Shown in pieces: positions 13,699 to 64,000 of a stretch of 64,000 nucleotides of DNA. Made by a program: the position numbers and the translations under genes. The DNA is from Escherichia phage ECO340P2. How positions within the stretch are numbered: position 1 is the stretch's first letter; the number at the start of each line of letters is the position of its first letter. The notes beneath the pieces were generated by a model. It ran no database searches and was not told the origin of the DNA. It worked only from the letters and a program-made list of their open reading frames with translations. The stretch lies in sequence record OP172792; one strand, written 5' to 3'.

Positions 13699-13711
13699 AG
13701 TTCCTCCTTTG

Positions 13712-19602: not shown

Positions 19603-19926
19603 ATGTCAAACAGTCTGTTTAGCGTGTCAATTGCACCACGTGTCAATATCCGTTGTCAGTTTGTTACTTTACCTGGTGTAACGCATATCGCATTAGAATA
19701 CGATCCCCGCTCACGAGACAACCCAATCACAGGGAAAATTGATTGTGCTTATGGGAACTTTGTTATGGATCACCAAACCCTCTTATGCTGTGTGCAACGC
19801 TTACAGGCAGGATCTTTATACATCTTTAAGAAAACGGTGTTCCAAGAGATTGCTCAAGCAGTTGAAAGTGGTATGGAGACTCTTAACGCTATGATTGAAG
19901 CAGCCAACAAGAAGGAGGTTTTATGA
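19603..19926 (+). CDS. hypothetical protein
   Basis: ORF with GGAGG RBS. Confidence 0.55.
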   Translation: MSNSLFSVSIAPRVNIRCQFVTLPGVTHIALEYDPRSRDNPITGKIDCAYGNFVMDHQTLLCCVQRLQAGSLYIFKKTVFQEIAQAVESGMETLNAMIEAANKKEVL

Positions 19927-20183
19927 CACTTTATCACGTAACTACAGAAGGCGACTGTGAAGGCCGCACTACAAAAGATTTGGGGTATGTTGAAGCAGAT
20001 TCACCTGAACATGCTATCAAATACCTGCATTCCATCGGGAAGTATGCGGGTTATGAGTATACTATCTATGAGGTTGAAATTATTAACCTTATACAAGTGG
20101 CAACTCCTATGGCAGAGTTGAAACATCTTAAGGCAAAAGTAAGACCTGGTATAGTGTCCGATTACAAAGGGGAAGTAAAGTGA
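19923..20183 (+). CDS. hypothetical protein
   Basis: ORF with AAGGAGG RBS. Confidence 0.55.
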   Translation: MTLYHVTTEGDCEGRTTKDLGYVEADSPEHAIKYLHSIGKYAGYEYTIYEVEIINLIQVATPMAELKHLKAKVRPGIVSDYKGEVK

Positions 20184-32547: not shown

Positions 32548-32560
32548 TAAGGATCTAAAA

Positions 32561-33046
32561 ATGCTTAAAATGAAAACAGGTAATCTTATTGATGCCGCTA
32601 AAGCAGGGGAAGTAACGGTTATTGCTCATTGTTGTAATTGTATGTGTAACATGGGGGCAGGTATTGCCCCACAAATAAAATATGCGTTTCCATATGCATA
32701 CGAAGCAGATTTAGCTACAGGAGCAGGAAACCAGAAAAAGCTTGGTTCTTTTAGTTTAGGAGAACCAGAAGATTATCCTAATCCTATGGTATACAACCTT
32801 TATGGACAATATCGTTATGGATATAATAGTAAAGGTCGTCAATTAGATTATGATGCACTGTATGATGCTCTTGCAGCTATGGCAATGGACTTACACAATT
32901 ACGATAAAGGAGATCAACCAGCACATAAGATTGGTCTACCTATGATAGGTGCAGGTCATGCTGGAGGTAATTGGGCTATCATTGAAGTCATGATCAAAGA
33001 AACTTTAGTAAAAGCTGGTCACGATGTGACTATTTATAAACTTTAA
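32561..33046 (+). CDS. macro-domain protein (TARG1/Poa1p/DarG-like)
   Basis: VIAHCCNCMCNMGAGIAPQIKYAF matches recalled TARG1-type macro signature (hC.s.d..MGaGIA..F). Confidence 0.65.
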   Translation: MLKMKTGNLIDAAKAGEVTVIAHCCNCMCNMGAGIAPQIKYAFPYAYEADLATGAGNQKKLGSFSLGEPEDYPNPMVYNLYGQYRYGYNSKGRQLDYDALYDALAAMAMDLHNYDKGDQPAHKIGLPMIGAGHAGGNWAIIEVMIKETLVKAGHDVTIYKL

Positions 33047-33058
33047 GAGGAGATTAGT

Positions 33059-33280
33059 ATGGGTGTTTTTGCAGGTATTGTTGCGGTGGTAGGGTTTTTT
33101 GTTATTGCTTTTATGCTTAGTTTGATCCCAGCTTGGTTACTGTTGCTGGCTTACAACTATGTTGCTGAAGTTATGGGTCATGCAGATATCACTGTTCCAG
33201 TAACCTTCTGGACCGTGGTTTGTGTTTCGTTTATTCTGGCTGTATTACGAGGAATCTTTTCCTCTAGTTCTTCTAAGTAA
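33059..33280 (+). CDS. small membrane protein
   Basis: two hydrophobic helices; GAGGAG RBS. Confidence 0.55.
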   Translation: MGVFAGIVAVVGFFVIAFMLSLIPAWLLLLAYNYVAEVMGHADITVPVTFWTVVCVSFILAVLRGIFSSSSSK

Positions 33281-33300
33281 ATTTAAAACAGATGGAGGGC

Positions 33301-33525
33301 ATGATGAAAGTAGCTGTAGTAGAAACGGATACAGACTATCATGGAGCTTATGTTGACACCAAGATAATGGAATTCCCTTCTATGTTGGAGGCTGAAACCT
33401 GGTGTGATACAAGGTCTAGTAAAGGAAGTGCTTATTTTATCGACAAAAGCTTAACCAAAGCTTTGAACGAAGAGGAAAAGCCTAAGAAAGAGCCAGAAAA
33501 TAATATCAGCTTATCTTGGTATTAA
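33301..33525 (+). CDS. hypothetical protein
   Basis: ORF with GGAGGG RBS. Confidence 0.5.
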   Translation: MMKVAVVETDTDYHGAYVDTKIMEFPSMLEAETWCDTRSSKGSAYFIDKSLTKALNEEEKPKKEPENNISLSWY

Positions 33526-33528
33526 CTG

Positions 33529-33587
33529 TTGACAAGCTTTTTAAAAAGAGTAAGATATATCACATGAAGCGGGGAATAGTTCCCCGC
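33529..33587 (+). promoter_or_regulatory. promoter TTGACA-N16-TAAGAT + leader hairpin GCGGGGAAtagTTCCCCGC (same module as early genes, plus strand)
   Basis: hexamers and hairpin read directly; 18 nt upstream of terC RBS. Confidence 0.6.
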
Positions 33588-33604
33588 AAAGAGAGGAGAA
33601 AAGA

Positions 33605-34579
33605 ATGCAACTTGGTTTCCCAATTATTGATGTAGTTGTTTTAGTTGGTATTTTAGCATTGTCTATTGGTATCGATTTCTTTGGTCATAAAGAAAATAAA
33701 GAAATTGGAATCAAATCTGCTTTGCTTTGGTCTGTTTTTTGGATTGCTTTAGCTTTAGGGTATTACGCATTCATTTGGGTAGAACATGGTAAAGAATTTG
33801 CCGCGCTTTTCCTAAGTGGTTATGTGTTGGAAAAGAGTCTTTCTGTAGATAACCTAATGGTGTTCATGGCAATTTTTGCAAGCTTTGGAATTAAAAGCAC
33901 ACATCTCCAACATAAGATCTTACTTTGGGGGATTGCAGGAGCCATTGTCTTCCGAGGTATTTTTGTTGCAGCAGGCACCGCTTTGTTTAACCTTCATTGG
34001 TCGGTCCAAGTGTTGTTTGGTCTGATTGTAGCTTGGTCTGCCGTTGCTATTATCAAAGGGGGTGACGAAGAAGAGGATATTGATTACTCTAAACATTGGG
34101 CTGTTCGTTTAGTAGGTAAAGTTCTGCCTATGCACAATGCACTGGATGGTGAAAAGTTCATTACTATTAAGAATAGTATTAAATATGCAACCCCTGCTCT
34201 TCTTTGTGTGTTTGTTATTGAGCTTACAGATATTGTCTTCTCTTTTGATTCAGTTCCGGCTGTGATTGGTGTGACACAAGAACCTCTGCTAGTTTATTCT
34301 GCAATGCTGATGGCTGTTCTTGGCCTACGTGCACTTTTCTTTGTGTTAAGTGTAGCTGTGAAATATTTGGTTCACTTAGAGAAAGCTGTTGCTGTGGTTC
34401 TGGTGTTTGTTGGTGCTAAACTTATGTATCACCCGTTCGGTGAAACACTTCATGCCAAGTGGTCATTCCTCCCGCATGATATCTCTCCTAACGTAAGTTT
34501 AATGATTGTTCTAGGCACATTAGCTCTTGGTGTTATTGCAAGCTTTATCTTTCCTGAAAAAGAAGAAGCCACTGTTTAA
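33605..34579 (+). CDS. terC: TerC-family integral membrane protein
   Basis: multiple TM helices; SLSVDNLMVF and ELTDIVFSFDSVPAVIGVT signatures. Confidence 0.8.
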   Translation: MQLGFPIIDVVVLVGILALSIGIDFFGHKENKEIGIKSALLWSVFWIALALGYYAFIWVEHGKEFAALFLSGYVLEKSLSVDNLMVFMAIFASFGIKSTHLQHKILLWGIAGAIVFRGIFVAAGTALFNLHWSVQVLFGLIVAWSAVAIIKGGDEEEDIDYSKHWAVRLVGKVLPMHNALDGEKFITIKNSIKYATPALLCVFVIELTDIVFSFDSVPAVIGVTQEPLLVYSAMLMAVLGLRALFFVLSVAVKYLVHLEKAVAVVLVFVGAKLMYHPFGETLHAKWSFLPHDISPNVSLMIVLGTLALGVIASFIFPEKEEATV

Positions 34580-48464: not shown

Positions 48465-49259
48465 TTGAGCAAGTTGAACACACTTGATCAATATTACACT
48501 AACCCCGCTTATGCGGGGTTCTTATGTGATAAGATCAAAGAAATTTTTGGAGAGGAAGCTAACTACGTAGAACCATCTGCGGGAGAAGGAGCTTTCTCTT
48601 CTTGTTTTAAAAACATAACTTCTTTTGATATTGACCCTAAGTTTGAAGATTGTATTGAGGCAGATTTTTTAGCCCAATCTGTTGAGTCTGTTGGTAGTGT
48701 AACTGCTTTTGTCGGTAATCCTCCATTTGGAAAAAATGCTAGTCTTGCCATTAAATTCTTTAACCATTGTGCTGAAATGCTAGATAACGAAGGTGGTATT
48801 TGTTTTATCTTGCCTCGCACATTTCAAAAAATCTTTTTTGCACACAAACTAAATCCCCACATGCATCTTCTTTACGAAGAAGAATGTCCAAAAGGATCTT
48901 TTATTCTTCATGGAGAACCTTGGGATGTTCCTTGTGTATTCCAGATATGGATTAAACGCAACGAGAAGCGTTCTCCCGTTGTTTTAGGAGAAAATCGACT
49001 ATTTGTATTAGGCAACAGTAAAGACTACGACATAGCCGTTAGGAGAGCGGGAGCAAGTGCAGGTAAAGTGTTATCAGAAGAAGATTCTTTATCTGAAGCG
49101 TCTACCTATTTTTTAAAAGCCTTGACTTCTGATCTTAAAACGCGTATCATTGAGGCTTACCCGTTACTTAAAGCTGAAGCTAGTAAAACTGCGGGAGTAA
49201 GAAGTTTAAGTTTAAAAGAACTTCAGTGGGTTCTGGAGAACATTAGAAAGGAGGAATAG
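48465..49259 (+). CDS. DNA N6-adenine methyltransferase (orphan)
   Basis: QYYTNP, EPSAGEGAF (motif I), VGNPPFGK (motif IV); TTG start; no adjacent endonuclease. Confidence 0.7.
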   Translation: MSKLNTLDQYYTNPAYAGFLCDKIKEIFGEEANYVEPSAGEGAFSSCFKNITSFDIDPKFEDCIEADFLAQSVESVGSVTAFVGNPPFGKNASLAIKFFNHCAEMLDNEGGICFILPRTFQKIFFAHKLNPHMHLLYEEECPKGSFILHGEPWDVPCVFQIWIKRNEKRSPVVLGENRLFVLGNSKDYDIAVRRAGASAGKVLSEEDSLSEASTYFLKALTSDLKTRIIEAYPLLKAEASKTAGVRSLSLKELQWVLENIRKEE

Positions 49260-52200
49260 TGAGTAAGTTTACATGGGATATTGAAGCAAACGGATTGTTG
49301 AATAATGACACTATTGATTATTTGGCTAGTCCTTATCGTCTCAAAGACACATTTCAAATGCACTGTATTGTCTTAGAGAACCATGAAACAGGAGAAATAG
49401 TAGCTTTCCACGATGGCCCTAAATACATTTTTGATGGGCGTCCTTATGAAGAATCAGATGGTAAATACACGTATGTTCTTAAAGAGTATGTGGCGCAAGA
49501 TTACACACATTTTCAACTAAAAGATTTCCCAGACTTTATTAATCATGAAGGTTATTTTCAAGACAAGCCGGAATATCTGGTTGAAATGGCTGTGGCACAT
49601 AACGGTATCAACTACGACTGGTTGGCTACAAAACTGTTTTACGGATTGGATTACAGTGTTAAATATAATACATGGGGTAAAAGCAAGGTAAAACTTATTG
49701 ACTCCTTGATTTTGAGTAAAGTGTTGAACCCAGATCGAAAGATTGAGGGCAAATCAGGACATAGCTTGGCAGCACTTTCTCGAAAGGCAGGTGGTGATGT
49801 AAAAATAGATTTCCGTAAAGAGATTCCAGAAGAAGATCGATTTAAGACTTTTGCTGCGGATATGCTTTATTACTGTATCTATGACAACAAAGCCAATACG
49901 AGCGTATATAATTACCTTATGGAAGAATGGGGTGATTATGATAAATGGGAAGGTCCGTTTGAACTTGAACAACGTGTAGCAGACATTATTACACGCCAGG
50001 AACACCGTGGGTTTGCTTTTAACATGAAGCAAGCAGAAGAGAACCTTGCTTTTTTGGATGCCGAAATGGAGCGTCTTCGTTTACTCGTTGAGCCTATTTT
50101 GCCACCTAAGCCAGCAACAAAAGGTTATCTTAAGGCTTTTATCCCACCTAAGTTGCAAATTAAAAAGAACTTAGAACCAACTAACCATATGATCAATTTT
50201 GCTAAGAAACATGATGGTCATTTGGAAGAGAGAGATGGGGACTGGTGGTTAGTTATGTTGGGGAAAGAGTGGAAACTGCCAGTTGCAGCAGACGAACCTT
50301 TATGTGATCCTCATATCCCTGCAACATTGAATGATACAACCCATATTAAAAACTGGCTTGTAGGTTTAGGTTGGGTACCATCAGAATATAAAGATAAAGA
50401 CTTGACTCTTAAATCTGGCACCAAGATTAAAAAGAGTGAGGAAGAACTTCAGAAAGGTATTCGAGCTTACGTTGAGCAAACTCTATCTTCTAATTTTTGT
50501 CAGGATCGTTGTGATCACCTTGAGTGCACACCGGAAACCTTAGAAAGGAAAATTCAAGAGCGTATAGCAAAAGGTAAAGGTCGCGGTCTTAAAGTGTTGA
50601 CTAACCCATGTTTTACCAAAGGTCAGGAAAAAGAAATTTGTCCTAACCTGCAAGCTTTGGGTGAGAAATTTCCTTATGCTACACAGATTGTAGAATACTT
50701 AACGTATAAACATCGTAGGAACTCTATTTTAGGTGGTGGTGCTGATTGGGAAGAAGACGAAGAAGATCAAGAATACGATAAAGGTTTCTTAGCCGCAGTA
50801 AGGGCGGATGGTCGTATTCCTACCCCAGCCGCTACATGTGATGCTGCAACCTCTCGTATGAAGCATAGGTCTGTCGCTAATATTCCTCGTGTTACATCTT
50901 TGTTTGGATGGGAGATGCGTAACCTGTTTGGTGTGGAGGTTCCTAAATACTTCCAGATCGGCTACGACTTCGACTCTTTGGAAGCAAAAATTGAATCACA
51001 CTACTGTGTGCCGATGGATGCTCAAGCTTTGACTCGTAAAGGTTGGGTAGGATATCACGACCTGAAGGAAGGGGATGAGATTTTAGGGTACAATGCTGAA
51101 ACAGGTCTGAAAGAATGGACTAAAGTAAAAGGTAAGGTCTTCTATAAAAATAGTAAGACGTTTGAGATTAAAGGGAAATCACACACTTACCGTGCAACAG
51201 CAGATCACCGTTGGTATGTTAATACCCGTAGTAAAGGGAATACTTATGTGCCTAAAGTCAGAACAACTGCCGAGCTTTGCACAGGAGATAACATTATTTG
51301 TAATGCTCCATTTAATATGGAACAAGATCAGGTAAATAGTTTAACTTCTGTTCAACAAGGTAAATGGGATGTTCCGTGGGTAGAACGTGTAGTTAATATG
51401 TCTCATGCCGAGCGTGTAGCTTTCTTGGAAGGTTTCTTGATTGCAGATGGTTACTGGCACGAACATAAACAAAAACCTGTTTGGCGTTGGGCGCAGAACC
51501 CAGGTGAACTTTTTGAAGCAGCTTTAACTGCCTCGTACCTGGTGCATGGAGGCAATATCTCTGTAGCTTTCAATACAAAAGAGCAGAAAGTAAAAGTGGC
51601 AACATTGACTAACCGCTCTCACATTCCTGTTCAAAGTTTGACTATTGAAGAGTGGGGTGTAGAGGATGTTTGGTGTCCACAAACAGAACTTGGTACGTGG
51701 GTCATGCGTCAGAAAGACTGCATTACCATCACAGGAAACTGTTGGCGGTACGAGCCGGAGCCACACGAGTATTGTAACGCTCTGTTGTTAGAGAAACCTA
51801 ATGATGTTCACACAATGATGGCAAAACGTATCACTGAAACTATCGGACGTAAATTTGAACGTAGTCCTGCTAAATCTGTTAAGTATGGTATTACCTATGG
51901 TGCACAAGCCGACAAGGTTGCTAAAACAATTGGTAGCGATAAGTTTACAGGTCAATTAGTGTTTGATGCTTTCTGGGAAGCTGCATTCCCATTGGCGCGT
52001 CTTAAAGAACGTTTAAACGATTTCTGGGTTAAGACTGGTAAACAATATGTTTTGGGTATTGACGGTCGTAAGGTTCCTACTCGTTCTGCTCACGCGATTC
52101 TTAACTCTCTGTTCCAAAGTGGTGGGGTTATCTGTGCTAAACGTGCAATGGTTATTTATGACGACATGATCGAAGAAGAAGGACTAAGTGTTGACTTCTT

Positions 52201-52591
52201 TAAAGATGACTGGAAGAATAAAGACTTCGTGCAACAAATGATTGCATATCACGATGAAGCCCAGCTTGAAGTTTCTCGTAACCTTGTAGAATTTAAATGG
52301 TTTTCACCTGAATCATTAGGTTGGAAGAAAGTAGACGATCCTGAAGAACAAAAGAAAATTGATAAAGAATGCCTTGCTAAAGTTGAAGAATGGAAGCATA
52401 ATAAGGAAAAAGAGACGGGACAAATTTGGGCTAACATTCATGAATCTCCCAAAGGTGGATGGTTTACAGCCTATAGTCGGGCAGGTGAACTTGCTGCCTT
52501 AGCTGTTACTAAGGCTGGAGAATTTTACAATCTTAATGTTCAGCTTACTGCCGGATATGATGTGGGTAATTCTTGGGCGTCCTGTCACTGA
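49259..52591 (+). CDS. family A DNA polymerase with 3'-5' exonuclease domain, interrupted by putative intein
   Basis: Exo I FTWDIEANGL; motif A-like GYDFDSLEAKI; motif B-like RSPAKSVKYGITYGAQ; 245-aa insertion between them; GTG start. Confidence 0.75.
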   Translation: MSKFTWDIEANGLLNNDTIDYLASPYRLKDTFQMHCIVLENHETGEIVAFHDGPKYIFDGRPYEESDGKYTYVLKEYVAQDYTHFQLKDFPDFINHEGYFQDKPEYLVEMAVAHNGINYDWLATKLFYGLDYSVKYNTWGKSKVKLIDSLILSKVLNPDRKIEGKSGHSLAALSRKAGGDVKIDFRKEIPEEDRFKTFAADMLYYCIYDNKANTSVYNYLMEEWGDYDKWEGPFELEQRVADIITRQEHRGFAFNMKQAEENLAFLDAEMERLRLLVEPILPPKPATKGYLKAFIPPKLQIKKNLEPTNHMINFAKKHDGHLEERDGDWWLVMLGKEWKLPVAADEPLCDPHIPATLNDTTHIKNWLVGLGWVPSEYKDKDLTLKSGTKIKKSEEELQKGIRAYVEQTLSSNFCQDRCDHLECTPETLERKIQERIAKGKGRGLKVLTNPCFTKGQEKEICPNLQALGEKFPYATQIVEYLTYKHRRNSILGGGADWEEDEEDQEYDKGFLAAVRADGRIPTPAATCDAATSRMKHRSVANIPRVTSLFGWEMRNLFGVEVPKYFQIGYDFDSLEAKIESHYCVPMDAQALTRKGWVGYHDLKEGDEILGYNAETGLKEWTKVKGKVFYKNSKTFEIKGKSHTYRATADHRWYVNTRSKGNTYVPKVRTTAELCTGDNIICNAPFNMEQDQVNSLTSVQQGKWDVPWVERVVNMSHAERVAFLEGFLIADGYWHEHKQKPVWRWAQNPGELFEAALTASYLVHGGNISVAFNTKEQKVKVATLTNRSHIPVQSLTIEEWGVEDVWCPQTELGTWVMRQKDCITITGNCWRYEPEPHEYCNALLLEKPNDVHTMMAKRITETIGRKFERSPAKSVKYGITYGAQADKVAKTIGSDKFTGQLVFDAFWEAAFPLARLKERLNDFWVKTGKQYVLGIDGRKVPTRSAHAILNSLFQSGGVICAKRAMVIYDDMIEEEGLSVDFFKDDWKNKDFVQQMIAYHDEAQLEVSRNLVEFKWFSPESLGWKKVDDPEEQKKIDKECLAKVEEWKHNKEKETGQIWANIHESPKGGWFTAYSRAGELAALAVTKAGEFYNLNVQLTAGYDVGNSWASCH
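51005..51739 (+). mobile_element. putative intein (245 aa) with LAGLIDADG-like motif inside the polymerase
   Basis: begins with Cys after motif A, TADH block, LEGFLIADGYW, ends ..ITGN followed by Cys; removal restores normal A-to-B spacing. Confidence 0.5.
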
Positions 52592-54268: not shown

Positions 54269-55201
54269 ATGTCCGTAATTAATACTGAAACTGATCGTAA
54301 AGGCAAAACCGTAACTTATGCAACTGGTATCGTAGACTACGTTAAACTGGATAAATTCGCTGAACCTAAAACTTTCCATTGGGAAGGAAAAACGATTGTT
54401 TCAACTCACCGAGCTTCTCTTGTTCTGAAAGAGAAAGGTGCTAAACCAGATGAGAAAGGTGTTTGGATTTCTCTTGGTGACATTGAACTGAAAGAAGGTT
54501 ATGAAAACCTGCAAGTCAAAGAAGGTGATAATTGGATCACTATTGAAAAAGGTGTAGAAGTAAGTATTGATATTGATCGCGTTGATAATAAAGGCGGTAA
54601 AACTTACTACAATACTAAAAAATCTCGTATTACAGTATTGTCTACCGAGGGTGTTCAGAAGTCTAACAAATCTTCTGGCAATAAAGGTTCCAACGATGCT
54701 GCTCCTAAGCAATCCTATAAAAAACGTGATACTGTAGGTCTGGAAACTGGTCACGCAGTAAATGGTGCACTGGAACTGATTCGTAATGGTGTTAAAGGCG
54801 ATGCTTTCGATATCGCTGGGGTTGTTCAATCTGCAACTGTCACGCTGAAATCGGAAATTGCTGAATCTCGTGGCGTTGATATTAATGATTATGATCTTGG
54901 GGCATCTGTTGGTCACGCTATCCTCAATGCTTGTAAAGACCATACCATTAAGACTGTATCTGTAGAAGATTTGATTGACTCTGCTCGTAAAGTTCTAGCT
55001 TTGTCTGATAAAGTTGCTGCTGCCATTCGTGGTTCCGTAGAACAACCTAAGAAAGAAGAGAAGAAAGAAGTTAAAAAGCCTGAACCACAACCAGAACCAA
55101 CTCCAAGCAATCAAGAAGAACCTCCAATGGACTTCGATGATGATATTCCATTTGCTCCTATTGGACTGCAATATGGTCGAAACTTCCTGCATTGCTTCTA
55201 A
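54269..55201 (+). CDS. SSB-like protein with acidic DDDIPF motif
   Basis: C-terminal region PMDFDDDIPF resembles SSB acidic tail, followed by 15 more residues. Confidence 0.45.
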   Translation: MSVINTETDRKGKTVTYATGIVDYVKLDKFAEPKTFHWEGKTIVSTHRASLVLKEKGAKPDEKGVWISLGDIELKEGYENLQVKEGDNWITIEKGVEVSIDIDRVDNKGGKTYYNTKKSRITVLSTEGVQKSNKSSGNKGSNDAAPKQSYKKRDTVGLETGHAVNGALELIRNGVKGDAFDIAGVVQSATVTLKSEIAESRGVDINDYDLGASVGHAILNACKDHTIKTVSVEDLIDSARKVLALSDKVAAAIRGSVEQPKKEEKKEVKKPEPQPEPTPSNQEEPPMDFDDDIPFAPIGLQYGRNFLHCF

Positions 55202-55235
55202 GGTTTGTTTCAAGTGCGTGAGGTTGAATGCTGAA

Positions 55236-55267
55236 TAAAAGAAAGGAGCCAAATGGCTCCTTTTCTT
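55236..55267. terminator. bidirectional terminator GGAGCCaaatGGCTCC between convergent operons
   Basis: 6-bp stem with T-runs on both strands. Confidence 0.7.
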
Positions 55268-57938
55268 ATTTATAACCCGAAGGAATATTATTATAATCAG
55301 AAAGTTTTGTGCAATACCTGAATAGGTAACTATTAGCTACTCCGCCTAATGTATTTGTTAATGTTGTTCCTGTTCCTGTAAGATTTGTGCATCCACTAAA
55401 GAAAGAAGATAATGCTCCACGTTTACCACAAACAGTTAACCCTGGGTTGTCATTAAAGATTTTATTAAAATCTGTAAGTGCTAAACAACCTTGGAATGTA
55501 GCTGTTAAAGAGGTCACTTTCGTTGGAATATTATCAAACATTCCTGCTGGAACTTCTGCAAGAGAGGTGCAATCTTTAAAGGTGTAAGAATATCTTGTAA
55601 CTTTTGATAGATTCTTAAATAAATCTGAAGGAATAGATGTTAAAGATGTACAACCTTCAAACGTGCTTGACATTGTTGTCATTGAAGGAAATAAAGCATC
55701 ACTGAATAATCCTTCAGGGATAGCTGTCAAACTTGTGCAGCCAGAGAAGATACCGCTTATAGATGTTCCGGTGTAAGATGTGTTACTAAAACAATCAGAA
55801 GTTATTCGTCTTAAGTTAGCACAACCTTTTAAGAATTGTGAGGCTGGGCTTGTAGAATAACCAATTCTGTTGCCGCCCCATAATTCTAAAAGATTTGGAT
55901 TTGCTTCCATAGACACATCAACACTATTCACTACTGAAGCACTTGCAAATTCAATAGCCAGTCTATATTCTCCTGCTGGATAACTATCCACTGTAGAGAA
56001 AGCTTTATTTCTAAATATTACTTTATTTGAAGGTATTACAACGTCATCCACTTTAACTACAAAGTTAGCTGGTGTGACAGTACCCGATAAAATTGGGAAC
56101 GTAATTGCCCCATCTGCCGAGTGGTTGAAATATCCGTTTAGAACCGTTAAACTACTACTCGGAGATGGAGCTAACTCCTTTCCCGCAACAGCATTCACCG
56201 TTAAATAAGAACTATCGGAAGCGGTAACAACACCTTGATACGTAGCTGTGCAACCAATCCTACAACCACCATCACCAACACCAGTTATTACACCAGTTGT
56301 AGGATCTACTGTAGCAACACTAGAATCTGTAGTTGTATATTCAACAACCATGCCAGGTAAGCTTGCTGCCCCTGTTGGCGTTATTTCTGCTACCATTGTT
56401 TGTGTTGTTCCTACATCCATCGCAGATAAGCTAGGGGTGTAAACACTCAATGTTGAAGCATATCCTCCAGAGGTATCTGATAAAGTTGTTCCTTCAGCGT
56501 TTAAGGCTGTCATACCTGCATCAAAACCACCTTCTGCATGGAAAGTCATTAAACCAGTAGATGATATTGTCATGTTTGCAGGGGCAGAAGAAGTGTATTT
56601 AATATTGAAAAGTTTACCTCCTTCTGGGCTAACAGAATGTGTCAACTGTTTAGTTCCACCTACAATACAAACTCCTAAAGAATCTGTAGTTAAGCTAGTT
56701 GCCAGCACATCTCCCGTAATCACAGAGCTTGCTATCGGTGTGAATTTATTATAATTTAGACCACTGTTGAACAGATACGAGGCTTTCCCATCTTTCCAAA
56801 TACCGGAATAATACATATCCCCGTTATAAACGAAAAAGGTTCCTTGATAACCTAATTGGTTAGTAATATCCATATTCAGCGTATGAACGCTTGTGAGCTT
56901 GTTTATATCCCAAGAACCCACTCCTTCAGGTTTAACTGGTTTTCCCACTTGGAGTGGATCTCCGCTCGCAGAATCATACCCCAAACCTAAGTTTGCAGTG
57001 TAGTTCTTACCAATAGCCCACAAGGAATTGTTGATCCCAACGAAAAAAGAGTGGCGGCTTGGTGGAAATTTCCATGTTGAGAAACCTGCTGCAAAGGTAT
57101 CCAGTTTAGTGTAGGTTGTTTCTGTATTAGACCTGACATATAAGTAGTTTACCGTGCCCGTACCACCAGAGGTGTCTCCTACAACTATTGTCTGGGAAAC
57201 TGTATTGATGTAATCTTTGACATACACTGTTTCAGTAGTGGATATCGTGGCATTGACAAAAGCGGTTGTTGTGTTATTATTACCTGCTAAACCTTTACTA
57301 GCTCCACAAACACGCAAGGTTCCCACATTGTTGACATAAGAGCATTGGTTGTAACCTGCATCAAAAGCAACTGCTGAACTTGTTATCTGACGAGGAGTAG
57401 AAACTTCGTTAGTAGTGCTTGCACCTAAACTACCTACTGTGTTTTGACCCGATCCATAAAGAACACCGCTATTCATTAACCAGAGAGTATTGTTATACCC
57501 TCCTTTAACCTCTTTAAGATTGGCTAAAGAAATAGTCCCTGTTATTACAGATGGAAAGCTGGTCCAAGTAGTTACACATGCATCCGTACCACCTGCTGCT
57601 ATAGATCCTACCAACCCTGCTGTCAATCCTGAATATTGCCATCCCCCACTGTTAGTTTTAATAACAAAACAACGATCTGCGGTAAACACATCCGCTACTA
57701 CAGTAGAAGCTAAGTGGAAATTATTGAATCGTGCACTACGAGTTCCATCTGCAATCTCACCAAAGAGGTTTGCGCCTTGAGTAAACAATCTACCATCATT
57801 AAGCAAAATTGCTAAACTGTTGTTAGAATTACCAGCGTTATCTGGGTAATCTAAAGTGATTACTTTTTTAACAATACCTGCTGGCAGAGGAACGACACCA
57901 GTGCTGGTCATAATAGTAAATATTGGAATTGGAAACAT
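55266..57938 (-). CDS. tail fibre / receptor-binding protein with C-terminal BspA-type leucine-rich repeats
   Basis: repeats F.GCTSLT.IP..LF near C-terminus; Gly/Thr/Ser-rich body. Confidence 0.5.
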   Translation of the reverse strand: MFPIPIFTIMTSTGVVPLPAGIVKKVITLDYPDNAGNSNNSLAILLNDGRLFTQGANLFGEIADGTRSARFNNFHLASTVVADVFTADRCFVIKTNSGGWQYSGLTAGLVGSIAAGGTDACVTTWTSFPSVITGTISLANLKEVKGGYNNTLWLMNSGVLYGSGQNTVGSLGASTTNEVSTPRQITSSAVAFDAGYNQCSYVNNVGTLRVCGASKGLAGNNNTTTAFVNATISTTETVYVKDYINTVSQTIVVGDTSGGTGTVNYLYVRSNTETTYTKLDTFAAGFSTWKFPPSRHSFFVGINNSLWAIGKNYTANLGLGYDSASGDPLQVGKPVKPEGVGSWDINKLTSVHTLNMDITNQLGYQGTFFVYNGDMYYSGIWKDGKASYLFNSGLNYNKFTPIASSVITGDVLATSLTTDSLGVCIVGGTKQLTHSVSPEGGKLFNIKYTSSAPANMTISSTGLMTFHAEGGFDAGMTALNAEGTTLSDTSGGYASTLSVYTPSLSAMDVGTTQTMVAEITPTGAASLPGMVVEYTTTDSSVATVDPTTGVITGVGDGGCRIGCTATYQGVVTASDSSYLTVNAVAGKELAPSPSSSLTVLNGYFNHSADGAITFPILSGTVTPANFVVKVDDVVIPSNKVIFRNKAFSTVDSYPAGEYRLAIEFASASVVNSVDVSMEANPNLLELWGGNRIGYSTSPASQFLKGCANLRRITSDCFSNTSYTGTSISGIFSGCTSLTAIPEGLFSDALFPSMTTMSSTFEGCTSLTSIPSDLFKNLSKVTRYSYTFKDCTSLAEVPAGMFDNIPTKVTSLTATFQGCLALTDFNKIFNDNPGLTVCGKRGALSSFFSGCTNLTGTGTTLTNTLGGVANSYLFRYCTKLSDYNNIPSGYK

Positions 57939-57949
57939 TTAAACCCTCC

Positions 57950-57975
57950 ATAAAAAGAAAGCCCCTTTCGGGGCT
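57950..57975 (-). terminator. intrinsic terminator GCCCCgaaaGGGGC + TTTCTTTTT
   Basis: GC stem plus T-run on minus strand. Confidence 0.7.
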
Positions 57976-57979
57976 TCTG

Positions 57980-60004
57980 TTATCGTGTTACAACAACCAT
58001 GTCCACGACATTACCCACACCAGGATACGTTAATTGCAAAATTGTTACTGCGTTAGCAGTAGTTGCTATTTCTGTATCATTCAGTGCTCCATAAGACGCA
58101 TCTAGTGTAACCGTGTGTCCCGTTGTATCTTGAATCAAATAAATCATTGCTGAAAACGCTTTAGGCTTTGTAGAGCCAGTGACACCAGGCCATGCTCCAA
58201 CTGTCAGAGCGTCAGTTACTGTAACAACATACATATTGGAAGTTCCAGAAGGAGTCCAAGATGCTCCAGAGTTGGCAGTAGTTGTTTCAAGTTCCATGAA
58301 ACCTGCTGTAACTTTAGTTGGTGTTATAGCTTCTGTAGGATCTGATCCTGATATTTCGATCCAGTTTCCATCAGAACGACCATACGTCAAGCCATCTTGA
58401 GGGGCTTCTGGTATACTAGGAAGAGTGCCTATAAGTATCCACGTAGAAGAATCTGTTTTCTTAAACACTGCTCCAGTGTTAGTATTGAAGGCGTAATCAT
58501 TGATAACACCGTCTCCTGCGACTGGATTAGTTGTTGCTACAAACCACTGTGCGCCGTCCTTACCGTTGGTCCCATCAGTACCATTGGTTCCGTTTGTTCC
58601 AGGATCACCCTTATCTCCTTTATCCCCTTTTTCACCTTTGTCACCTTTAATACTTCCCATGTCAACAAAAGATGCGGAATTAGTGTCTTGATCGTAGGTA
58701 TAGATGTAAAGATTACTAGTGTCTTCAGTTAAATAGGCATCACCATAGTTATTATAAACAGGGAGAGCTTCACTGTTCGGAACATGACCTTTAGCTGTAA
58801 TTGATGTTCCTCCAAGACTGCCAACATTCATCCATTCCGTAGCATCTTGAATCCAAACATACAAATCATTATTAATTTTATATGCATCACCTACTTCTCC
58901 AGTAGGAGGAAGTTCAGCTTCACTGTTCAGAACCCCGATAATCTCTAAGCCTGATCCTGTTGCACCCACTGGTCCTTGTGGACCTAGTTCACCTTGTGGA
59001 CCTCGCTCTCCTTGATCACCCTTGTCTCCTTTTGGACCTTTAAGTGAGGCAATAAAATCTACTTCTGTCCCTTCATTACCAGCATCCAGCCAACTTTGAT
59101 ATGCAGATTTCCCTTCATCTCCATCTGTTCCATCAAGACCGTCTTTACCTGCCTCACCTTGTGGACCTTGAGGACCAACAATATTACCCATGTTGACCCA
59201 AGCTGTCCCATTAGAGACATAAAGATTACCATTGATAGAATAAGCTTGGCTTACGTTTTCAGAGTTAGGTTGTGGTAAGTTACTTGTAGAAGGCAAATCC
59301 CCACGATAATCAAAACCGTTGGCGTTAACACCAGGTGCTCCCTGTGGCCCTGTAGGACCAACATCACCTTTATCACCTTTTATAGAGGTAAGAAAATCAT
59401 AAACAGATCCTGTATTACCATCTGCCAACCATACCTCGTAAGCTGATTTACCTTCTGGCCCAAGAGAAGAAATAAGTTTCCAAACAGAACCATCCCAAGC
59501 GTAGATTACATCACCTACGATATAACCATCCCCTGCAACGTTACCTGTGGATGGTAGTTCACTAGTGCTTGCTAATGATCCTTTAATATTAAGTTGAGCA
59601 CCAGTATCCCCTTTCAAAGAAGCAAGCCATTGTGCTTCTGTTCCAACAAAACCATTATCAAGTGCGATCTGATAAGCCGATTTACCAGCTTCAGGTATTG
59701 TTTCCGACAGATCATCAATTTGTTGCTGCATTGCCGTAAACTTGGCATTGATAATTGCTATATCATCAGCGGTCCCAACACTTTGCCATGCAAGGGAAGA
59801 AATACCACCTGTGGTGGCTGGCGTAGAGTTTGCTGGAACTACTTTAGGAAAAGTTCCTTTCCATTGGTAATAATTCCCTTCTGCTGCTAACAGCAAAACT
59901 TCACGGGAATTACGTAATGTAAAACCTGCCTCAAAGCTGCGACGTTTTCGATAAGTAGCTTCTACCAGATCGGCTATCGCACTATTAGGTCTTGTTAAAT
60001 TCAT
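57980..60004 (-). CDS. collagen-like tail fibre protein
   Basis: multiple G-X-Y runs (GDKGDQGERGPQGELGPQGPVGATG) and repeated KSAY(E/Q)..WL..G modules. Confidence 0.6.
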   Translation of the reverse strand: MNLTRPNSAIADLVEATYRKRRSFEAGFTLRNSREVLLLAAEGNYYQWKGTFPKVVPANSTPATTGGISSLAWQSVGTADDIAIINAKFTAMQQQIDDLSETIPEAGKSAYQIALDNGFVGTEAQWLASLKGDTGAQLNIKGSLASTSELPSTGNVAGDGYIVGDVIYAWDGSVWKLISSLGPEGKSAYEVWLADGNTGSVYDFLTSIKGDKGDVGPTGPQGAPGVNANGFDYRGDLPSTSNLPQPNSENVSQAYSINGNLYVSNGTAWVNMGNIVGPQGPQGEAGKDGLDGTDGDEGKSAYQSWLDAGNEGTEVDFIASLKGPKGDKGDQGERGPQGELGPQGPVGATGSGLEIIGVLNSEAELPPTGEVGDAYKINNDLYVWIQDATEWMNVGSLGGTSITAKGHVPNSEALPVYNNYGDAYLTEDTSNLYIYTYDQDTNSASFVDMGSIKGDKGEKGDKGDKGDPGTNGTNGTDGTNGKDGAQWFVATTNPVAGDGVINDYAFNTNTGAVFKKTDSSTWILIGTLPSIPEAPQDGLTYGRSDGNWIEISGSDPTEAITPTKVTAGFMELETTTANSGASWTPSGTSNMYVVTVTDALTVGAWPGVTGSTKPKAFSAMIYLIQDTTGHTVTLDASYGALNDTEIATTANAVTILQLTYPGVGNVVDMVVVTR

Positions 60005-60040
60005 TTATCTCTCCTATCATTAGACCATTCTATTGGAAGA

Positions 60041-60060
60041 AGAGGGGGGATTCCCCCTCT
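60041..60060 (-). terminator. possible terminator hairpin GAGGGGGGAttCCCCCTC
   Basis: GC stem; weak T-run. Confidence 0.4.
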
Positions 60061-60066
60061 ATTCCA

Positions 60067-63000
60067 TTAGGTTGTTGGCACATCTACTACTGGCGTTGGG
60101 CGAATAACCGCAGTATTACCTACAGAAACATTACTGGAATCATTAGGTATGGTTTTAATTCTAACTCCAGCACTTGTAGGCGTTACAATGGGATCTGCAA
60201 TGTCTATTTTAACTGGGTTAGTCCACGTATCATTATCTTGATAAGGTGCACGAGTAATAACTGTGTCCAAATCTGCTCCACCTACGCCAGCACCAGGAAT
60301 ACGGATACGTGTCCCTGCTGACAGAGGGTAATGATACAACCAAGAAGCATTTGTTGCTGTCCCGTTAGGAGTCAAGTTCTGTGTCAGGAAGGTATCTCCT
60401 GCTTGTGTAGCTCGAATACCGAAAGCTGGGATATCTGGAATATATGCCCCACTTGTTGTTACAAGGAAGAACGTATTATCCGCCTTGACTATCATATCAC
60501 CTTTGTCAAACTCTTTCCCTGTTGGGAAATGCATTCCATCAATGTTTCGACTAGGATTAGGCTCTAAGTAATAAACTTTGCCCGTTGTCCCTACAATAGC
60601 TCCAATACCACCTGCGATATTGGTATACATATTAGCTTCAACATTACAGTTGACACGATGAATATCCGAGTAACGGCAACGGCTCCACTGTGGACGACCA
60701 GTAACCATCGTCTTGCCATCTGGGTAACAGTTTACGTTAACCATTTCAAGAACAGATTTTTCTCTACGGAAGAATCCATCATAAAATGTCCCTGGACCAG
60801 ATTCAGGTTGACCAACACAATCGAAGATATTACAGGTGATGTTAGACATTGAAAGCCAAGAAGCTATACCGAACAACTGCAATGCAGCGCAACGAATATT
60901 TTCAAAGCTAACTCTGTTTTCATAACCTGGCCCAGCGGAAACTCCCGCAAAAACACGCCCAGTTTTGGTGTGAATGTTACGAACAGAATAGTTAAAGCAT
61001 GGGTTTGAAGGTCTACCCTGTGCCGGAACTACCGGATTACCCTCTTCGTCCAGAACTGCGTTAGTTCCCCACTCCAAATAAATCATACGGATATTACTTG
61101 CAAGTGTGCTACCGTCTGTTTTAGGCTCTCCATAAACACCGTCAATCGTAAAATCTTTACTTCCATACATTACAACTGCGCCAGTTGCCAAACCTGTCCC
61201 AACAGATACAGTCTGGTCTGGATCGCCATGAATGTTTTCGATAGAGATATTACGACCAACTTCTACGTGGACAATCTGACGACAACGTTTTGCAAAAACG
61301 TTACGAATTGTAATATTCTTGCAATATTGATCATCAGGGATTCCGTAACCATATGGTCCTTTACCAGCTACACCGATACCGATACCCCAGTTGGACAGAG
61401 GAATAGGAGCGTTAGTCCCATCGATATTAGACAGGTAAATATTCTCAATCACACAACCATCGTCATAATGTTTATTGATGACGTTCAGTTCTATTGCATC
61501 ACCTTGCATGTCCATGAAGGTAAGGTTACGGAAGACACCACGTGTTACTGGTTCCCCTGTTCCTTGTTGAAGGATGCCGTACAACCCGTTTTTAAAAGTA
61601 CAGTTATCAATTTCAAAAGTACCTGATATTGGGTTGCCTTGGAATACCAAGCTACCAACTTGACCTGGGCGAGGAGCACCGTCCCACAAACAATCGAACA
61701 TGCGCACAGCACCACCCCAATACATAACACGAGAGTTACGGAAAGTTGTGCCTTCTACTGTAGCATTCTGCACACGATAGTCGCGTTGACCACGGAACAC
61801 ACCACCACGCAAAGTGATATCTTGAATATCAAAAGAGCTTGTCGTGAAAGTCATATCGCAACCGTAAGCATCGAGAATCTTACTTTTCGAAGCTTTTGCT
61901 GCTAACAGTGCCGCCTGGAAAGCTGCTTCTGGTGTGGTATAGGTAGTTGTATTGTTAGCAAATTCGGACAAGTAAACAACATCGAATAAATCGTTGTATG
62001 TTCCACCACGAGGGGTTAACAGTCCTTCTGTATTAGTTAAAACCCATGCATTTGGACCTAATCCACCGCTTGTCTCCAATGTATCGGAGGCCAAAATACT
62101 TTTTGGTAAACTTCCAGCCCAACGATAACGACCAGCACCACGTCCAATCGTCTGATTTTTAGCTGTCAGAGTTACGTTGTTACCAAAGCTTGTAGGCAAA
62201 TGAACAAACTGTCCACGTTCAACAGCTAGTGCAGAAAGATCTACAGACCCCCCAGAATAAGTCATTACTCCAGAAACAGACAAGGATGTTAAAGTTCCTG
62301 TGATGTTAGGAGGTAATGTGTAGGAAGACTGTGCTACTGGATCATACAGAGCTTTAATCCCTGTTAACGATTGACCTGCTGTTGCGTAAGCCACCTCATC
62401 ATCTAACAAACCATATTTACGAGCAATAGTTTGCAGAGGGACTTTATCCATGCTTTCTGTTAGTTCTTCCGTTTTTGTTTCTAAACTAACAAGACGGTTC
62501 TCTAGATTAGGATCTGTATCTGCTGAAGCTACGATTTTACCAATATAAGCAAAAAGCTTGTTTGGCAGTCCTGTTGCAGGATCGTGTCCCAAAGGTTCAG
62601 ATAAGATGATCTTACTATCTTCTATACGGAAAGCTTCCCCCAGAACCTGAATAACACCATTGATCGTAACAATAGCACTATCAAAGATGTAAGGAGGACT
62701 AATTACTGTTTCATAACCAGTTGCACCAGAATATACCCAAGGGGTGACTTCTGTTGCCAATTGTTCTGTCTTCAGTCCCCACAATACCCAGTTGTTATCT
62801 CCTACTGGAGTCCCTTGCATAGGGATAGGGTTAACCAATGTAGCGTTAGGAGCATAGTAATAACCGCTCAATACTCCATTCTGGAAATAACGAAGTTGGT
62901 TAAAAACCGTTTCATTTGTGCCTTGCGCCCAATCCAATGGGCTTTTAAAGAAAAAGTTATCAACAAGGGCTTTTCTCAGGGTTGGTATCAATCCTGATTC

Positions 63001-63120
63001 TGTCTCAATACTTTCTGTCGCACTTCCATTAATAACATCATGAAGTTGATTGGACGAGAAAATAACCAGATCTACGCCCTGTTCAAGAGACGTTGCTGGA
63101 TACGTTGGGAATGTTGCCAT
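60067..63120 (-). CDS. tail fibre/tailspike protein, probable right-handed beta-helix
   Basis: 1017 aa; Asn/Gly/Thr-rich repeats such as NITIRNVFAKRCRQIVHVEVGRNISIENIH. Confidence 0.5.
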   Translation of the reverse strand: MATFPTYPATSLEQGVDLVIFSSNQLHDVINGSATESIETESGLIPTLRKALVDNFFFKSPLDWAQGTNETVFNQLRYFQNGVLSGYYYAPNATLVNPIPMQGTPVGDNNWVLWGLKTEQLATEVTPWVYSGATGYETVISPPYIFDSAIVTINGVIQVLGEAFRIEDSKIILSEPLGHDPATGLPNKLFAYIGKIVASADTDPNLENRLVSLETKTEELTESMDKVPLQTIARKYGLLDDEVAYATAGQSLTGIKALYDPVAQSSYTLPPNITGTLTSLSVSGVMTYSGGSVDLSALAVERGQFVHLPTSFGNNVTLTAKNQTIGRGAGRYRWAGSLPKSILASDTLETSGGLGPNAWVLTNTEGLLTPRGGTYNDLFDVVYLSEFANNTTTYTTPEAAFQAALLAAKASKSKILDAYGCDMTFTTSSFDIQDITLRGGVFRGQRDYRVQNATVEGTTFRNSRVMYWGGAVRMFDCLWDGAPRPGQVGSLVFQGNPISGTFEIDNCTFKNGLYGILQQGTGEPVTRGVFRNLTFMDMQGDAIELNVINKHYDDGCVIENIYLSNIDGTNAPIPLSNWGIGIGVAGKGPYGYGIPDDQYCKNITIRNVFAKRCRQIVHVEVGRNISIENIHGDPDQTVSVGTGLATGAVVMYGSKDFTIDGVYGEPKTDGSTLASNIRMIYLEWGTNAVLDEEGNPVVPAQGRPSNPCFNYSVRNIHTKTGRVFAGVSAGPGYENRVSFENIRCAALQLFGIASWLSMSNITCNIFDCVGQPESGPGTFYDGFFRREKSVLEMVNVNCYPDGKTMVTGRPQWSRCRYSDIHRVNCNVEANMYTNIAGGIGAIVGTTGKVYYLEPNPSRNIDGMHFPTGKEFDKGDMIVKADNTFFLVTTSGAYIPDIPAFGIRATQAGDTFLTQNLTPNGTATNASWLYHYPLSAGTRIRIPGAGVGGADLDTVITRAPYQDNDTWTNPVKIDIADPIVTPTSAGVRIKTIPNDSSNVSVGNTAVIRPTPVVDVPTT

Positions 63121-63123
63121 TAA

Positions 63124-63459
63124 TTACCCCTTATTCTGTGTACGTTTAACTATGTCATCTAGCATCATTTGGATAGTCGCATTCTTGAGGTCCATAATCT
63201 TTTCAATTTTTTGCTCAAGAGTGTTATTATTTGCCATTAATGTAGAGTTAATTTGATTTAGCATCTGGGTAAGTTCGGCTTTAGTTGCATAAGTTGATTC
63301 AACAAAGACCAACTTCTTCTCTAGCTCTCGACTTTTCTCCTCCATTTCCTCAAGATCAGAGCCGAATTTATCCATTTTTTGTTTGAAAAAGAACCAGATG
63401 ACTCCGATTAAAGGGATTATTGCATCCTTTGCAAGTCCCCATGCTTCTTGAAATTCCAT
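63124..63459 (-). CDS. membrane-anchored coiled-coil protein
   Basis: N-terminal TM segment then charged helical region. Confidence 0.5.
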   Translation of the reverse strand: MEFQEAWGLAKDAIIPLIGVIWFFFKQKMDKFGSDLEEMEEKSRELEKKLVFVESTYATKAELTQMLNQINSTLMANNNTLEQKIEKIMDLKNATIQMMLDDIVKRTQNKG

Positions 63460-63468: not shown

Positions 63469-63960
63469 TTATTCCGTTGGTAATGTAGGCCAATCTATAG
63501 TGTAAGGATAGTCTTTTTGAAGCGGAACACGGTTTAGTTTAACCACATAAACTTGAAGATTTTTAAGATAAGCTAATTCATCTTCAGTAGCCATTTCTAA
63601 ATCTTTAGCATACTGTAAAGGTGTTATAAGTGCTACCGCTGTTTCTTGTAAAGAGCGAATTTTTGCACTAGCTTGTGTCATCAACTCTTCACGGGAATAC
63701 TCTTTATCCTTAAGAGTCAAAGTTTCTAAATCCAGAACCTTGTTTCTAATATCCTCAAAAGTGTCTATATTAAAGTCCACTTGTGCTATAGAAAGATCTT
63801 CAGGGCAAAGTAATGTAGGATCAGTGTTCCAAAACACAATACGATTTTGATCGTCAAAAACGACTTTCATTTTATCGTTATTGAATTCTGTGCTACGTAA
63901 ATCATACCAATCGTAACCTTGATCGCAACGAAGAAAAAGAATGTTCTCTACTTCTACCAA
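63469..63960 (-). CDS. hypothetical protein
   Basis: ORF upstream of tail-fibre genes. Confidence 0.5.
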   Translation of the reverse strand: MVEVENILFLRCDQGYDWYDLRSTEFNNDKMKVVFDDQNRIVFWNTDPTLLCPEDLSIAQVDFNIDTFEDIRNKVLDLETLTLKDKEYSREELMTQASAKIRSLQETAVALITPLQYAKDLEMATEDELAYLKNLQVYVVKLNRVPLQKDYPYTIDWPTLPTE

Positions 63961-64000
63961 TTCTTTTAGTTCGGGATCTTCGGGAATATATCTTTTAAAA

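Follow-up and report, generated by a model that had tools for sequence, protein, structure and literature searches.

Three large leftward genes stand in a row near the end of a 64,000-nucleotide stretch of DNA from Escherichia phage ECO340P2 (sequence record OP172792; the whole of this stretch is called the window below), and the question that the locus raises is what the three proteins, here A, B, and C in the order of their coordinates, do in adsorption, and which of their parts changes from one phage to the next. The original prediction, made from the window's sequence, had placed the genes at 55266–63120, had called them convergent, had read them as a BspA-type leucine-rich-repeat (LRR) protein, a collagen-like fiber, and a probable beta-helix tailspike, and had taken three such architectures in a row to suggest a branched or multireceptor adsorption apparatus. 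Three minus-strand open reading frames (ORFs) do lie at exactly these coordinates (Table 1), and their lengths are far above chance expectation. Gene structure, domain content, homologies, gene order, and the pattern of variation could all be established directly, and our overall reading, which we consider very probable, is that A, B, and C are three of several receptor-binding proteins encoded by the late tail/baseplate block of a Phapecoctavirus. Phapecoctaviruses are among the coliphages with the broadest host ranges and serve in cocktails for therapy and biocontrol (PMC10844046, PMC11495123); which of their fiber proteins binds what is not yet established in the literature (PMC8594841, PMC10844046).

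Phage Identity and the Late Tail Gene Block

A megablast search with 7855 bases matched 70 phage records, and in 68 of them the match spans 80% or more of the query. The top match, at 98.5% nucleotide identity, is Escherichia phage Mt1B1_P17 (NC_052662; Phapecoctavirus, Stephanstirmvirinae), and this phage, phAPEC8 (NC_020079), and about 60 other Phapecoctavirus genomes show 96–98.5% nucleotide identity across all 7855 bases. The proteins themselves are 98–100% identical to ones already annotated in deposited Phapecoctavirus genomes, and the labels in the records of relatives read tail protein for A, tail fiber protein for B, and colanic acid degradation for C.

In Mt1B1_P17 the same-strand block continues beyond C with a small protein, a tail fiber assembly protein, a 353-residue tail fiber, baseplate wedge proteins, a 958-residue tail protein, baseplate hub and spike proteins, the tape measure protein, and the sheath. 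A, B, and C form the distal end of that block and are three of at least six fiber-type genes; in relatives, the remaining ones (the short tail fiber, the 958-residue fiber protein, and several smaller fiber proteins) map beyond the window's right-hand edge. Five relatives, representing two genera, have these genes in the same order (short tail fiber, chaperone, small protein, C, B, A). We read the region as the distal part of a late tail/baseplate gene block in a phAPEC8-like E. coli myophage.

An Exchangeable Tip on Gene A

The original prediction had proposed a comparison with related phages to see which module varies, and that comparison gave a clear answer. Against phAPEC8, Schickermooser, and nieznany, A is 94–100% identical up to residue ~585 and 12–32% identical from there on, and this drop coincides exactly with the end of the second of two immunoglobulin (Ig)-like domains. 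Compared block by block (50 residues each) with its counterparts in four Phapecoctavirus genomes, C is 98–100% identical throughout, and in 60 phage records its identity is at least 99% (99–100%); B varies little within the genus, the exception being a patch at residues 300–400 in nieznany. Within the genus, then, only the last ~306 residues of A (~585–890) are swapped as a block, a replacement seen in about half of the close relatives, and B and C barely vary. Receptor-binding proteins typically show this design, in which the backbone is conserved and the tip is traded at a boundary between domains.

The DNA of the LRR-like tip found in the window is present in 35 phage records, or about half of the related set. 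The alternative tip, of the phAPEC8 type, has no detectable similarity to it and is 63% identical to the C-terminus of a 939-residue protein, gp033, at the same locus of Justusliebigvirus alia (13457–16276 of alia locus L002). This protein begins with MYPIPLF, as compared with MFPIPIF in A, and then carries both Ig domains without the propeller that precedes them in A; the Ig domains of A are 66% identical to its residues 16–188. A and B correspond to TfpM1 and TfpM2, respectively, of PMC12695924, where TfpM1 is stated to be absent from Justusliebigvirus. With a partial homologue, gp033, at the same locus in alia, that statement is only partly right. A third type of tip occurs in distant (metagenome) relatives of A, where a clear DUF285 domain is detected (E 1e-36 to 1e-43), and some metagenome relatives are shorter and end after the Ig domains. 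Covariation of the last residues of B with the tip of A was also considered and is not supported, B differing by two point substitutions only.

Domain Architecture of A

A direct sequence search of solved structures with A returned only weak RCC1 and LRR matches, and the architecture was read from an AlphaFold2 (AF2) model built with 29 homologues, which has a mean predicted local distance difference test score (pLDDT) of 84.9. This confident model contains, from the N-terminus, a seven-bladed RCC1-like beta-propeller, two Big_2 Ig-like domains that would form a stalk, and the exchangeable tip, itself composed of a beta-sandwich and an LRR-like region. In Foldseek searches the propeller matches UVR8, RPGR, HERC2, and RCC1 with E values from 3e-13 (UVR8) to 1e-8 and a target-normalized TM score of ~0.70. 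The Pfam RCC1 repeat scores 23.8 bits on it (cutoff 21.7), and WD40_RLD scores 38.4 (cutoff 150). Similar propellers are found in BFVD in phage proteins annotated as tail fibers, for example those of Pseudomonas phages Littlefix and PollyC, and one such propeller-bearing tail fiber has a T7 tail-fiber N-terminal domain. We found no directly relevant literature on RCC1 domains in phage tail fibers.

Whole-model fold searches of A against PDB and BFVD are dominated by the propeller, and the tip was examined by profile searches. It carries seven F-x-G-C-x-x-L repeats, at residues 706, 734, 763, 790, 818, 850, and 876, with a spacing of 26–32 residues. On the isolated tip, Pfam LRR_5 (PF13306, BspA type) scores 17.4 bits against a cutoff of 27.7 and DUF285 scores 15.3 bits against a cutoff of 25, both below threshold. 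A profile of the tip matches the designed LRR protein 4PSJ (E 3.6e-6) and LRRTM (5A5C, E 1.1e-4) weakly, and hhalign aligns it, again weakly, with the DUF285-type tips of relatives (86% probability, E 4.6e-6, 54 columns). These data suggest that the repeats are LRR-like, of the BspA/DUF285 class, without making the tip a proven member of either family. The BspA-type LRR protein of the original prediction is recognizable in the seven repeats of the last ~190 residues, with sub-threshold scores, but not in the first ~670 residues, which are propeller, Ig domains, and beta-sandwich. As modeled, A resembles a bacterial adhesin and not a fiber in the usual trimeric sense.

C, a Probable Colanidase Tailspike with a Putative Baseplate Anchor

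Residues 426–1000 of C align with phi92 gp150 (PDB 6E0V chain A, residues 95–623) at E 1.5e-78, and the identical blocks include GDAIELNV and NWGIGIGVAG.GPYG. Pfam Beta_helix scores 16.1 bits on C (cutoff 25.9), and the putative beta-helix fold is taken from the homology to 6E0V, which supports the predicted beta-helix tailspike. C is the apparent counterpart of phi92 gp150, which, according to biochemical work cited in the 2026 phi92 paper, cleaves colanic acid at the glucose–fucose linkage (PMC13450770).

The N-terminal part of C is composite. Residues 11–127 match residues 14–132 of the phiTE long tail fiber (PDB 9CUY chain g) at E 2.6e-19, and residues 14–171 of that fiber have been modeled on wedge 2A and the sheath initiator (PMC11972413). 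Because the N-terminus of C matches a fiber segment that is resolved on a baseplate, C probably docks directly on the baseplate wedge. This putative docking domain is 76–84% identical to that of the colanidase of alia. Residues 121–176 weakly match a small post-anchor domain of podophage fiber/adaptor proteins (7Y22_e, E 3.5e-4; 9K4A and 23SH). Farther along, residues 226–372 match the tandem N-terminal modules of CBA120 TSP1, TSP3, and TSP4 and of G7C gp63.1 (PDB 4QNL, 5W6F, 4OJ5, and 5W6H) with E values from 1e-26 to 1e-30, and Pfam Tail_spike_N is found in C at E 2.4e-9. The colanidase of alia has 804 residues, 213 fewer than C, and its identity in a global alignment falls to 10–20% over C residues 200–500; the D1-D2 module of C is absent from the phi92-like colanidase.

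B, a Collagen-Like Fiber

B begins with a Tail_spike_N module that matches tailspike N-terminal domains in PDB (E 1.8e-13 to 2.6e-5), with 34–40% identity to CBA120 TSP1 and TSP3 in Foldseek. The collagen-like fiber foreseen in the original prediction is confirmed by four G-X-Y runs, at residues 210–227, 277–300, 323–352, and 454–486 (6, 8, 10, and 11 triplets), and by a Pfam Collagen match above its cutoff (E 3.3e-12; 46.4 bits, cutoff 27.2). The same region carries three GKSAY...LKG knots. Near the C-terminus, the foldon-like motif IPEAPQDGLTYGRSDGNWIEI resembles the T4 fibritin foldon; residues 503–552 match a fibritin foldon fusion (PDB 1V1H, E 9.3e-4), and the alia homologue of B matches Pfam Fibritin_C with a score below the cutoff. 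The distal tip domain that follows is again of phiTE type: residues 561–671 match residues 681–790 of the phiTE long fiber (9CUY chain g, E 1.7e-8), and the C-terminus of phrog_4549 matches the tip at E 1.8e-40. Indeed, phrog_4549 is shared by two of the proteins, matching near the N-terminus of C and at the C-terminus of B.

In an AF2 model of B, made as a monomer, globular beads with pLDDT ~80 are joined by G-X-Y linkers with pLDDT <50, and the predicted TM score (pTM) is 0.27; fold searches with this model yield local matches. Such a pattern of confidence would be expected for a chain that needs two partners to form a triple helix. With tail fiber proteins of Justusliebigvirus (phi92-like), B shares ~59% identity along 98% of its length. 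In alia a fiber of this type directly follows the colanidase gene, in the same position as here, and by this synteny B is the apparent counterpart of phi92 gp151.

Relation to Known Systems

The closest studied relative is phi92, of the same subfamily and with the same gene order ending in a colanidase, a collagen-like fiber, and an Ig-domain protein; C is homologous to gp150, and B to the alia fiber at the gp151 position. The 2012 work of Schwarzer et al., as described in papers that cite it, presented phi92 as a "nanosized Swiss army knife" with three coexpressed sets of lateral fibers, a picture that is repeated for Phapecoctavirus in passages of PMC8594841, PMC10844046, and PMC12210895. 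In the 2026 electron cryomicroscopy study (PMC13450770), three fiber sets per wedge are seen, with fiber II attached to the base of fiber I; the gene for fiber II is not assigned there, the candidates being gp15, gp140, gp150, and gp151, whose models fitted poorly. The multireceptor or branched apparatus of the original prediction is therefore a rediscovery of a published model for the subfamily, in which adsorption is multivalent and in part branched (PMC8594841, PMC13450770, PMC10844046), and is not new. Three unrelated architectures are indeed present, and which protein would dock on which is suggested by domain homology only. The additions made here are modest ones, namely a domain map of A, the three-way polymorphism of its tip, and the presence of the phiTE fiber ends on two different proteins.

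The differences from phi92 lie in C and in A. Phapecoctavirus C has an extra stretch of ~225 residues with CBA120-type D1-D2, and its catalytic body is ~45% identical; in the third protein a propeller is inserted, and the tip in ECO340P2 is LRR-like rather than of the phi92-like type. The endosialidase of phi92, gp143, is reported to be absent from the phapecoctaviruses AV125 and AV126 (PMC10844046). Within the genus, phAPEC8, Schickermooser, and nieznany differ from the phage studied here in the tip on gene A, and some relatives, unlike the window, have a homing endonuclease gene beside gene A.

Comparison with more distant systems is informative at the level of modules. The long fiber of phiTE (a Pectobacterium phage, Vequintavirinae) resembles C 11–127 at its N-terminus and B 561–671 at its tip. 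In phiTE, both ends are on one protein of 793 residues, whereas here they are on two, whose central parts (the beta-helix of a colanidase and a collagen-like shaft) are unrelated. The branched tailspikes of CBA120 (TSP1–4) and G7C (gp63.1 and gp66) share N-terminal D1-D2 modules with C 226–372 and B 12–77, but belong to another virus family and another baseplate, and of the T4 gp10-like docking domains from which those complexes are built there is no clear case here, the one sign being the weak podophage match of C 121–176. Finally, the repeats of A share the GC-x-s-L-t-x-i-P consensus of BspA/DUF285 proteins and, as in internalin-like adhesins, are joined to Ig-like domains. The order in A is the reverse of that in internalins, the LRR region coming after the Ig domains and an RCC1-like propeller standing ahead of the two, and the LRR_5 and DUF285 scores are below their Pfam cutoffs.

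Proposed Arrangement and Alternatives

From these homologies we infer the trimer state, virion location, docking partners, and every ligand in the arrangement that follows. C would be a trimeric tailspike that, like the phiTE long fiber, attaches to the outer wedge of the baseplate through its ~130 N-terminal residues, and its beta-helix body would cut colanic acid, the slime exopolysaccharide that hides the cell surface, and so let the phage reach that surface. B would be a flexible trimeric fiber in which collagen-like triple-helix segments alternate with beta beads and helical knots and which is closed by the foldon-like motif; its tip domain, of the kind seen at the end of the phiTE long fiber, would bind some surface structure. 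Since the N-terminus of B is a tailspike-type docking module and not a baseplate anchor, B is probably attached to another fiber protein. A may be held by its short conserved N-terminal peptide, with the propeller and the two Ig stalk domains then presenting the exchangeable tip of ~306 residues. Together with the short tail fiber, the three proteins would provide several ways to hold or clear surface glycans before commitment at the lipopolysaccharide (LPS) core, irreversible binding being thought to be made by the short tail fiber at the LPS outer core (PMC8594841). In mutants resistant to the near-identical phage 536_P1, either LPS-core genes were hit or capsule was overproduced as a shield (PMC11495123), a pattern that is consistent with A, B, and C being accessory, glycan-directed proteins and not essential receptor binders.

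Several points weigh against a role of all three as receptor-binding tail proteins. The same resistance genetics gave only LPS-core loss and capsule overproduction, from which no receptor can be assigned to A, B, or C (PMC11495123); no virion proteomics or microscopy of these proteins in Phapecoctavirus was found in the literature consulted; and the LRR call for the tip of A comes from sub-threshold family scores. Moreover, predicted models of gp150 and gp151 misfit the low-resolution density of phi92 fiber II (PMC13450770), the best PDB fold match of the B model in Foldseek is the capsid spike Pa223 gp52 (9NY6, E 5.8e-5), and Big_2 domains like those of A also decorate capsids and tail tubes (matches to phrog_215 and phrog_28902). 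The poor fit, the capsid-spike match, and the phrog_215 match would be accommodated if B, and possibly A, were head fibers or capsid decorations rather than tail appendages, adhering weakly and reversibly to cell or mucosal glycans as has been proposed for the Pa223 spike and for Ig decoration proteins. A likeness to the Pa223 spike has also been noted for phi92 gp151 and gp140 (PMC13450770), and the phrog_215 match of the Ig domains of A (E 1.3e-21) is to a "structural protein with Ig domain, head and packaging". We nevertheless regard a capsid location as unlikely: the match of B to the Pa223 spike is weak (query-normalized TM 0.13, root-mean-square deviation 22 Å), A and B are the last members of a same-strand baseplate/tail-fiber block, and B begins with a Tail_spike_N module otherwise found in tailspikes and ends with the tip of a fiber that is resolved on a baseplate. 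Still more improbable is that A is no virion protein and acts in secreted or intracellular form, for example as a modifier of the host surface or as an RCC1-type DNA-acting protein as speculated for jumbo phages. Phage RCC1-like proteins, whose role is unknown, are often annotated as DNA condensation proteins (PMC7247149; BFVD names), and proteomic evidence for A was not found; against this, backbones of 97% identity carry tips that have been traded at a domain boundary, the signature of a receptor-binding protein, its Vequintavirus homologues are annotated as lateral tail fiber proteins, and neither a signal peptide nor a DNA-binding domain turned up in the Pfam and PHROG scans.

A different arrangement of the three as tail proteins is a tentative possibility that we hold open. 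Here B and C would be the two parts of a split Vequintavirinae long tail fiber, with C as the anchor and B, sitting on C, as the distal tip, in one branched appendage that would be a candidate for phi92 fiber II, and A would be attached separately through its N-terminal peptide. The presence of the phiTE long-fiber ends on two proteins suggests such an appendage without proving it. A single chain, 9CUY_g, matches both the N-terminus of C and the C-terminus of B, as does phrog_4549 in its own way; B lacks a baseplate anchor of its own, C has the segment resembling the post-anchor domain of podophage fiber/adaptor proteins, and the B and C genes are adjacent in both genera. For the separate attachment of A, the MFPIPIF/MYPIPLF peptide has been retained even in the alia protein, which lacks a propeller. 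Docking of B on the D1-D2 module of C was considered as a general rule and rejected, as phi92-like colanidases lack D1-D2 and the neighboring fiber still has Tail_spike_N; D1-D2 cannot be the shared docking site. The published fitting of gp150 and gp151 into the fiber II density also failed. Extended to all three proteins, the split would have C combine the anchor with the colanidase and B carry the tip, docked on C, as fiber II, and would make A a nonfibrous adhesin with a propeller base, an Ig stalk, and a plug-in tip of at least three unrelated kinds (LRR-like, DUF285, and phi92-like) that acts as the main host-range switch within the genus; this fuller version is speculative, and we doubt it more than we credit it.

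Three points indicate where modules might be cut and pasted in host-range engineering: the swapping, within the genus, of the ~306-residue block of A alone, the LRR-like or phi92-like nature of that block, and the phiTE-type baseplate anchor on the colanidase C. They also suggest which protein to try first in the unassigned phi92 fiber density. If the split fiber and the plug-in tip are real, they would be of moderate interest for phage structural biology and for host-range engineering.

Gene Layout, Neighboring Genes, and Minor Observations

As Table 1 shows, hairpins stand on the 3′ side of each of the three genes. Shine-Dalgarno-like sequences are read directly upstream of A and of B, and C starts 3 nucleotides past the stop of a small ORF of 111 residues. 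The three genes converge on the rightward replication genes; an ORF for a protein like single-stranded DNA-binding protein (SSB) ends at 55201, and the sign of the GC skew flips close to this junction.

Table 1. Features of the Tail Gene Region, in Window Coordinates
Feature	Position	Strand	Description and basis
Two-way hairpin terminator, separating gene A from the SSB-like gene that converges on it	55241–55264	both	Hairpin scan and sequence read
Gene A	55266–57938	minus	ATG-initiated ORF, 890 residues; modular adhesin-like tail protein; phrog_11922 "tail protein", E 0
A residues 585–890, exchangeable tip: beta-sandwich (598–670) and BspA/DUF285-like LRR region (~700–890)	55269–56186	minus	AF2 model, motif scan, profiles
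A residues 410–584, two Big_2 Ig-like domains, predicted stalk	56187–56711	minus	Pfam Big_2, E 1.6e-8
A residues 7–401, predicted seven-bladed RCC1-like beta-propeller	56736–57920	minus	AF2 model, 28 strands; Foldseek
Terminator candidate, hairpin and T-run, 3′ of gene B	57958–57977	minus	Equivalents annotated in phAPEC8 and Schickermooser
Gene B	57980–60004	minus	ATG-initiated ORF, 674 residues; collagen-like bead-on-a-string tail fiber; phrog_15437, E 0
B residues 530–674, foldon-like motif (530–552) and distal tip domain (558–674)	57983–58417	minus	PDB and PHROG matches
B residues 210–486, four G-X-Y runs, beta beads, GKSAY helical knots	58547–59377	minus	Regular-expression scan of the translation
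B residues 12–77, Tail_spike_N (D2-like) module, presumed docking end	59774–59971	minus	Pfam PF18668, E 1.3e-19
Short GC hairpin, weak terminator candidate, 3′ of gene C	60045–60057	minus	Equivalent terminator annotated in Schickermooser
Gene C	60067–63120	minus	ATG-initiated ORF, 1017 residues; predicted colanic-acid-degrading tailspike; phrog_6117 "colanic acid degradation", E 6.8e-283
C residues 426–1000, colanidase catalytic body and C-terminal domain	60121–61845	minus	Alignment to 6E0V
C residues 226–372, tandem N-terminal tailspike module D1-D2 (CBA120 TSP/G7C gp63.1 type)	62005–62445	minus	PDB and Pfam matches
C residues 11–127, putative baseplate-docking domain	62740–63090	minus	Homology to phiTE long tail fiber
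Small protein, 111 residues, labeled "lipoprotein"	63124–63459	minus	phrog_15210, E 4.3e-70; same position in both genera
Tail fiber assembly chaperone (lambda gpK/Caudo_TAP type), cut by the window edge	63469–64000	minus	Pfam Caudo_TAP, E 2e-13; phrog_136, E 5.9e-36

The "lipoprotein" label of the 111-residue protein is rejected, its translation having no cysteine and hence no lipobox; the protein has a hydrophobic stretch at its N-terminus followed by charged heptad-like or coiled-coil-like sequence, and its place between the fiber chaperone and the colanidase is kept in two genera. In Mt1B1_P17 the chaperone gene has 546 nucleotides and comes after the gene for the 353-residue tail fiber; the chaperone serves the short tail fiber gene located outside the window.

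An endonuclease gene stands between the SSB-like gene and A in Mt1B1_P17 (19566–19973 of locus L001) and in nieznany (9277–9771 of locus L005). The window has no such gene at 55201–55266, where just 65 nucleotides and the two-way terminator are found, and mobile endonuclease genes seem to use this junction as a landing site. Within the baseplate block of Mt1B1_P17, outside the window, the 687-residue "hypothetical protein" gp127 (32193–34256 of locus L001) matches the TIM-barrel (E 1.1e-79) and N-terminal domains of the Pfam "non-contractile tail sheath protein" and a Calx-beta domain; the noncontractile sheath family is unexpected in a contractile-tailed phage. Some near-identical records are labeled as Acinetobacter, Klebsiella, Campylobacter, or Pseudomonas phages, among them vB_AbaM_ABPW7, whose gene C protein is 100% identical, and these labels reflect either a remarkably wide host range or mislabeling or contamination of cultures with E. 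coli phage.

Finally, the DNA polymerase ORF of the window (49259–52591, plus strand) encodes 1110 residues, as compared with 865 in Mt1B1_P17. The difference lies in an in-frame insertion of 244 residues at ~51008–51739, with flanks that are 99–100% identical. The insertion begins with Cys (CVPMDAQ...) and ends with ...ITGN followed by Cys, and in Pfam it weakly matches Intein_splicing (E 0.0077) and LAGLIDADG_3 (E 0.16); it looks like an intein with a remnant of a homing endonuclease.

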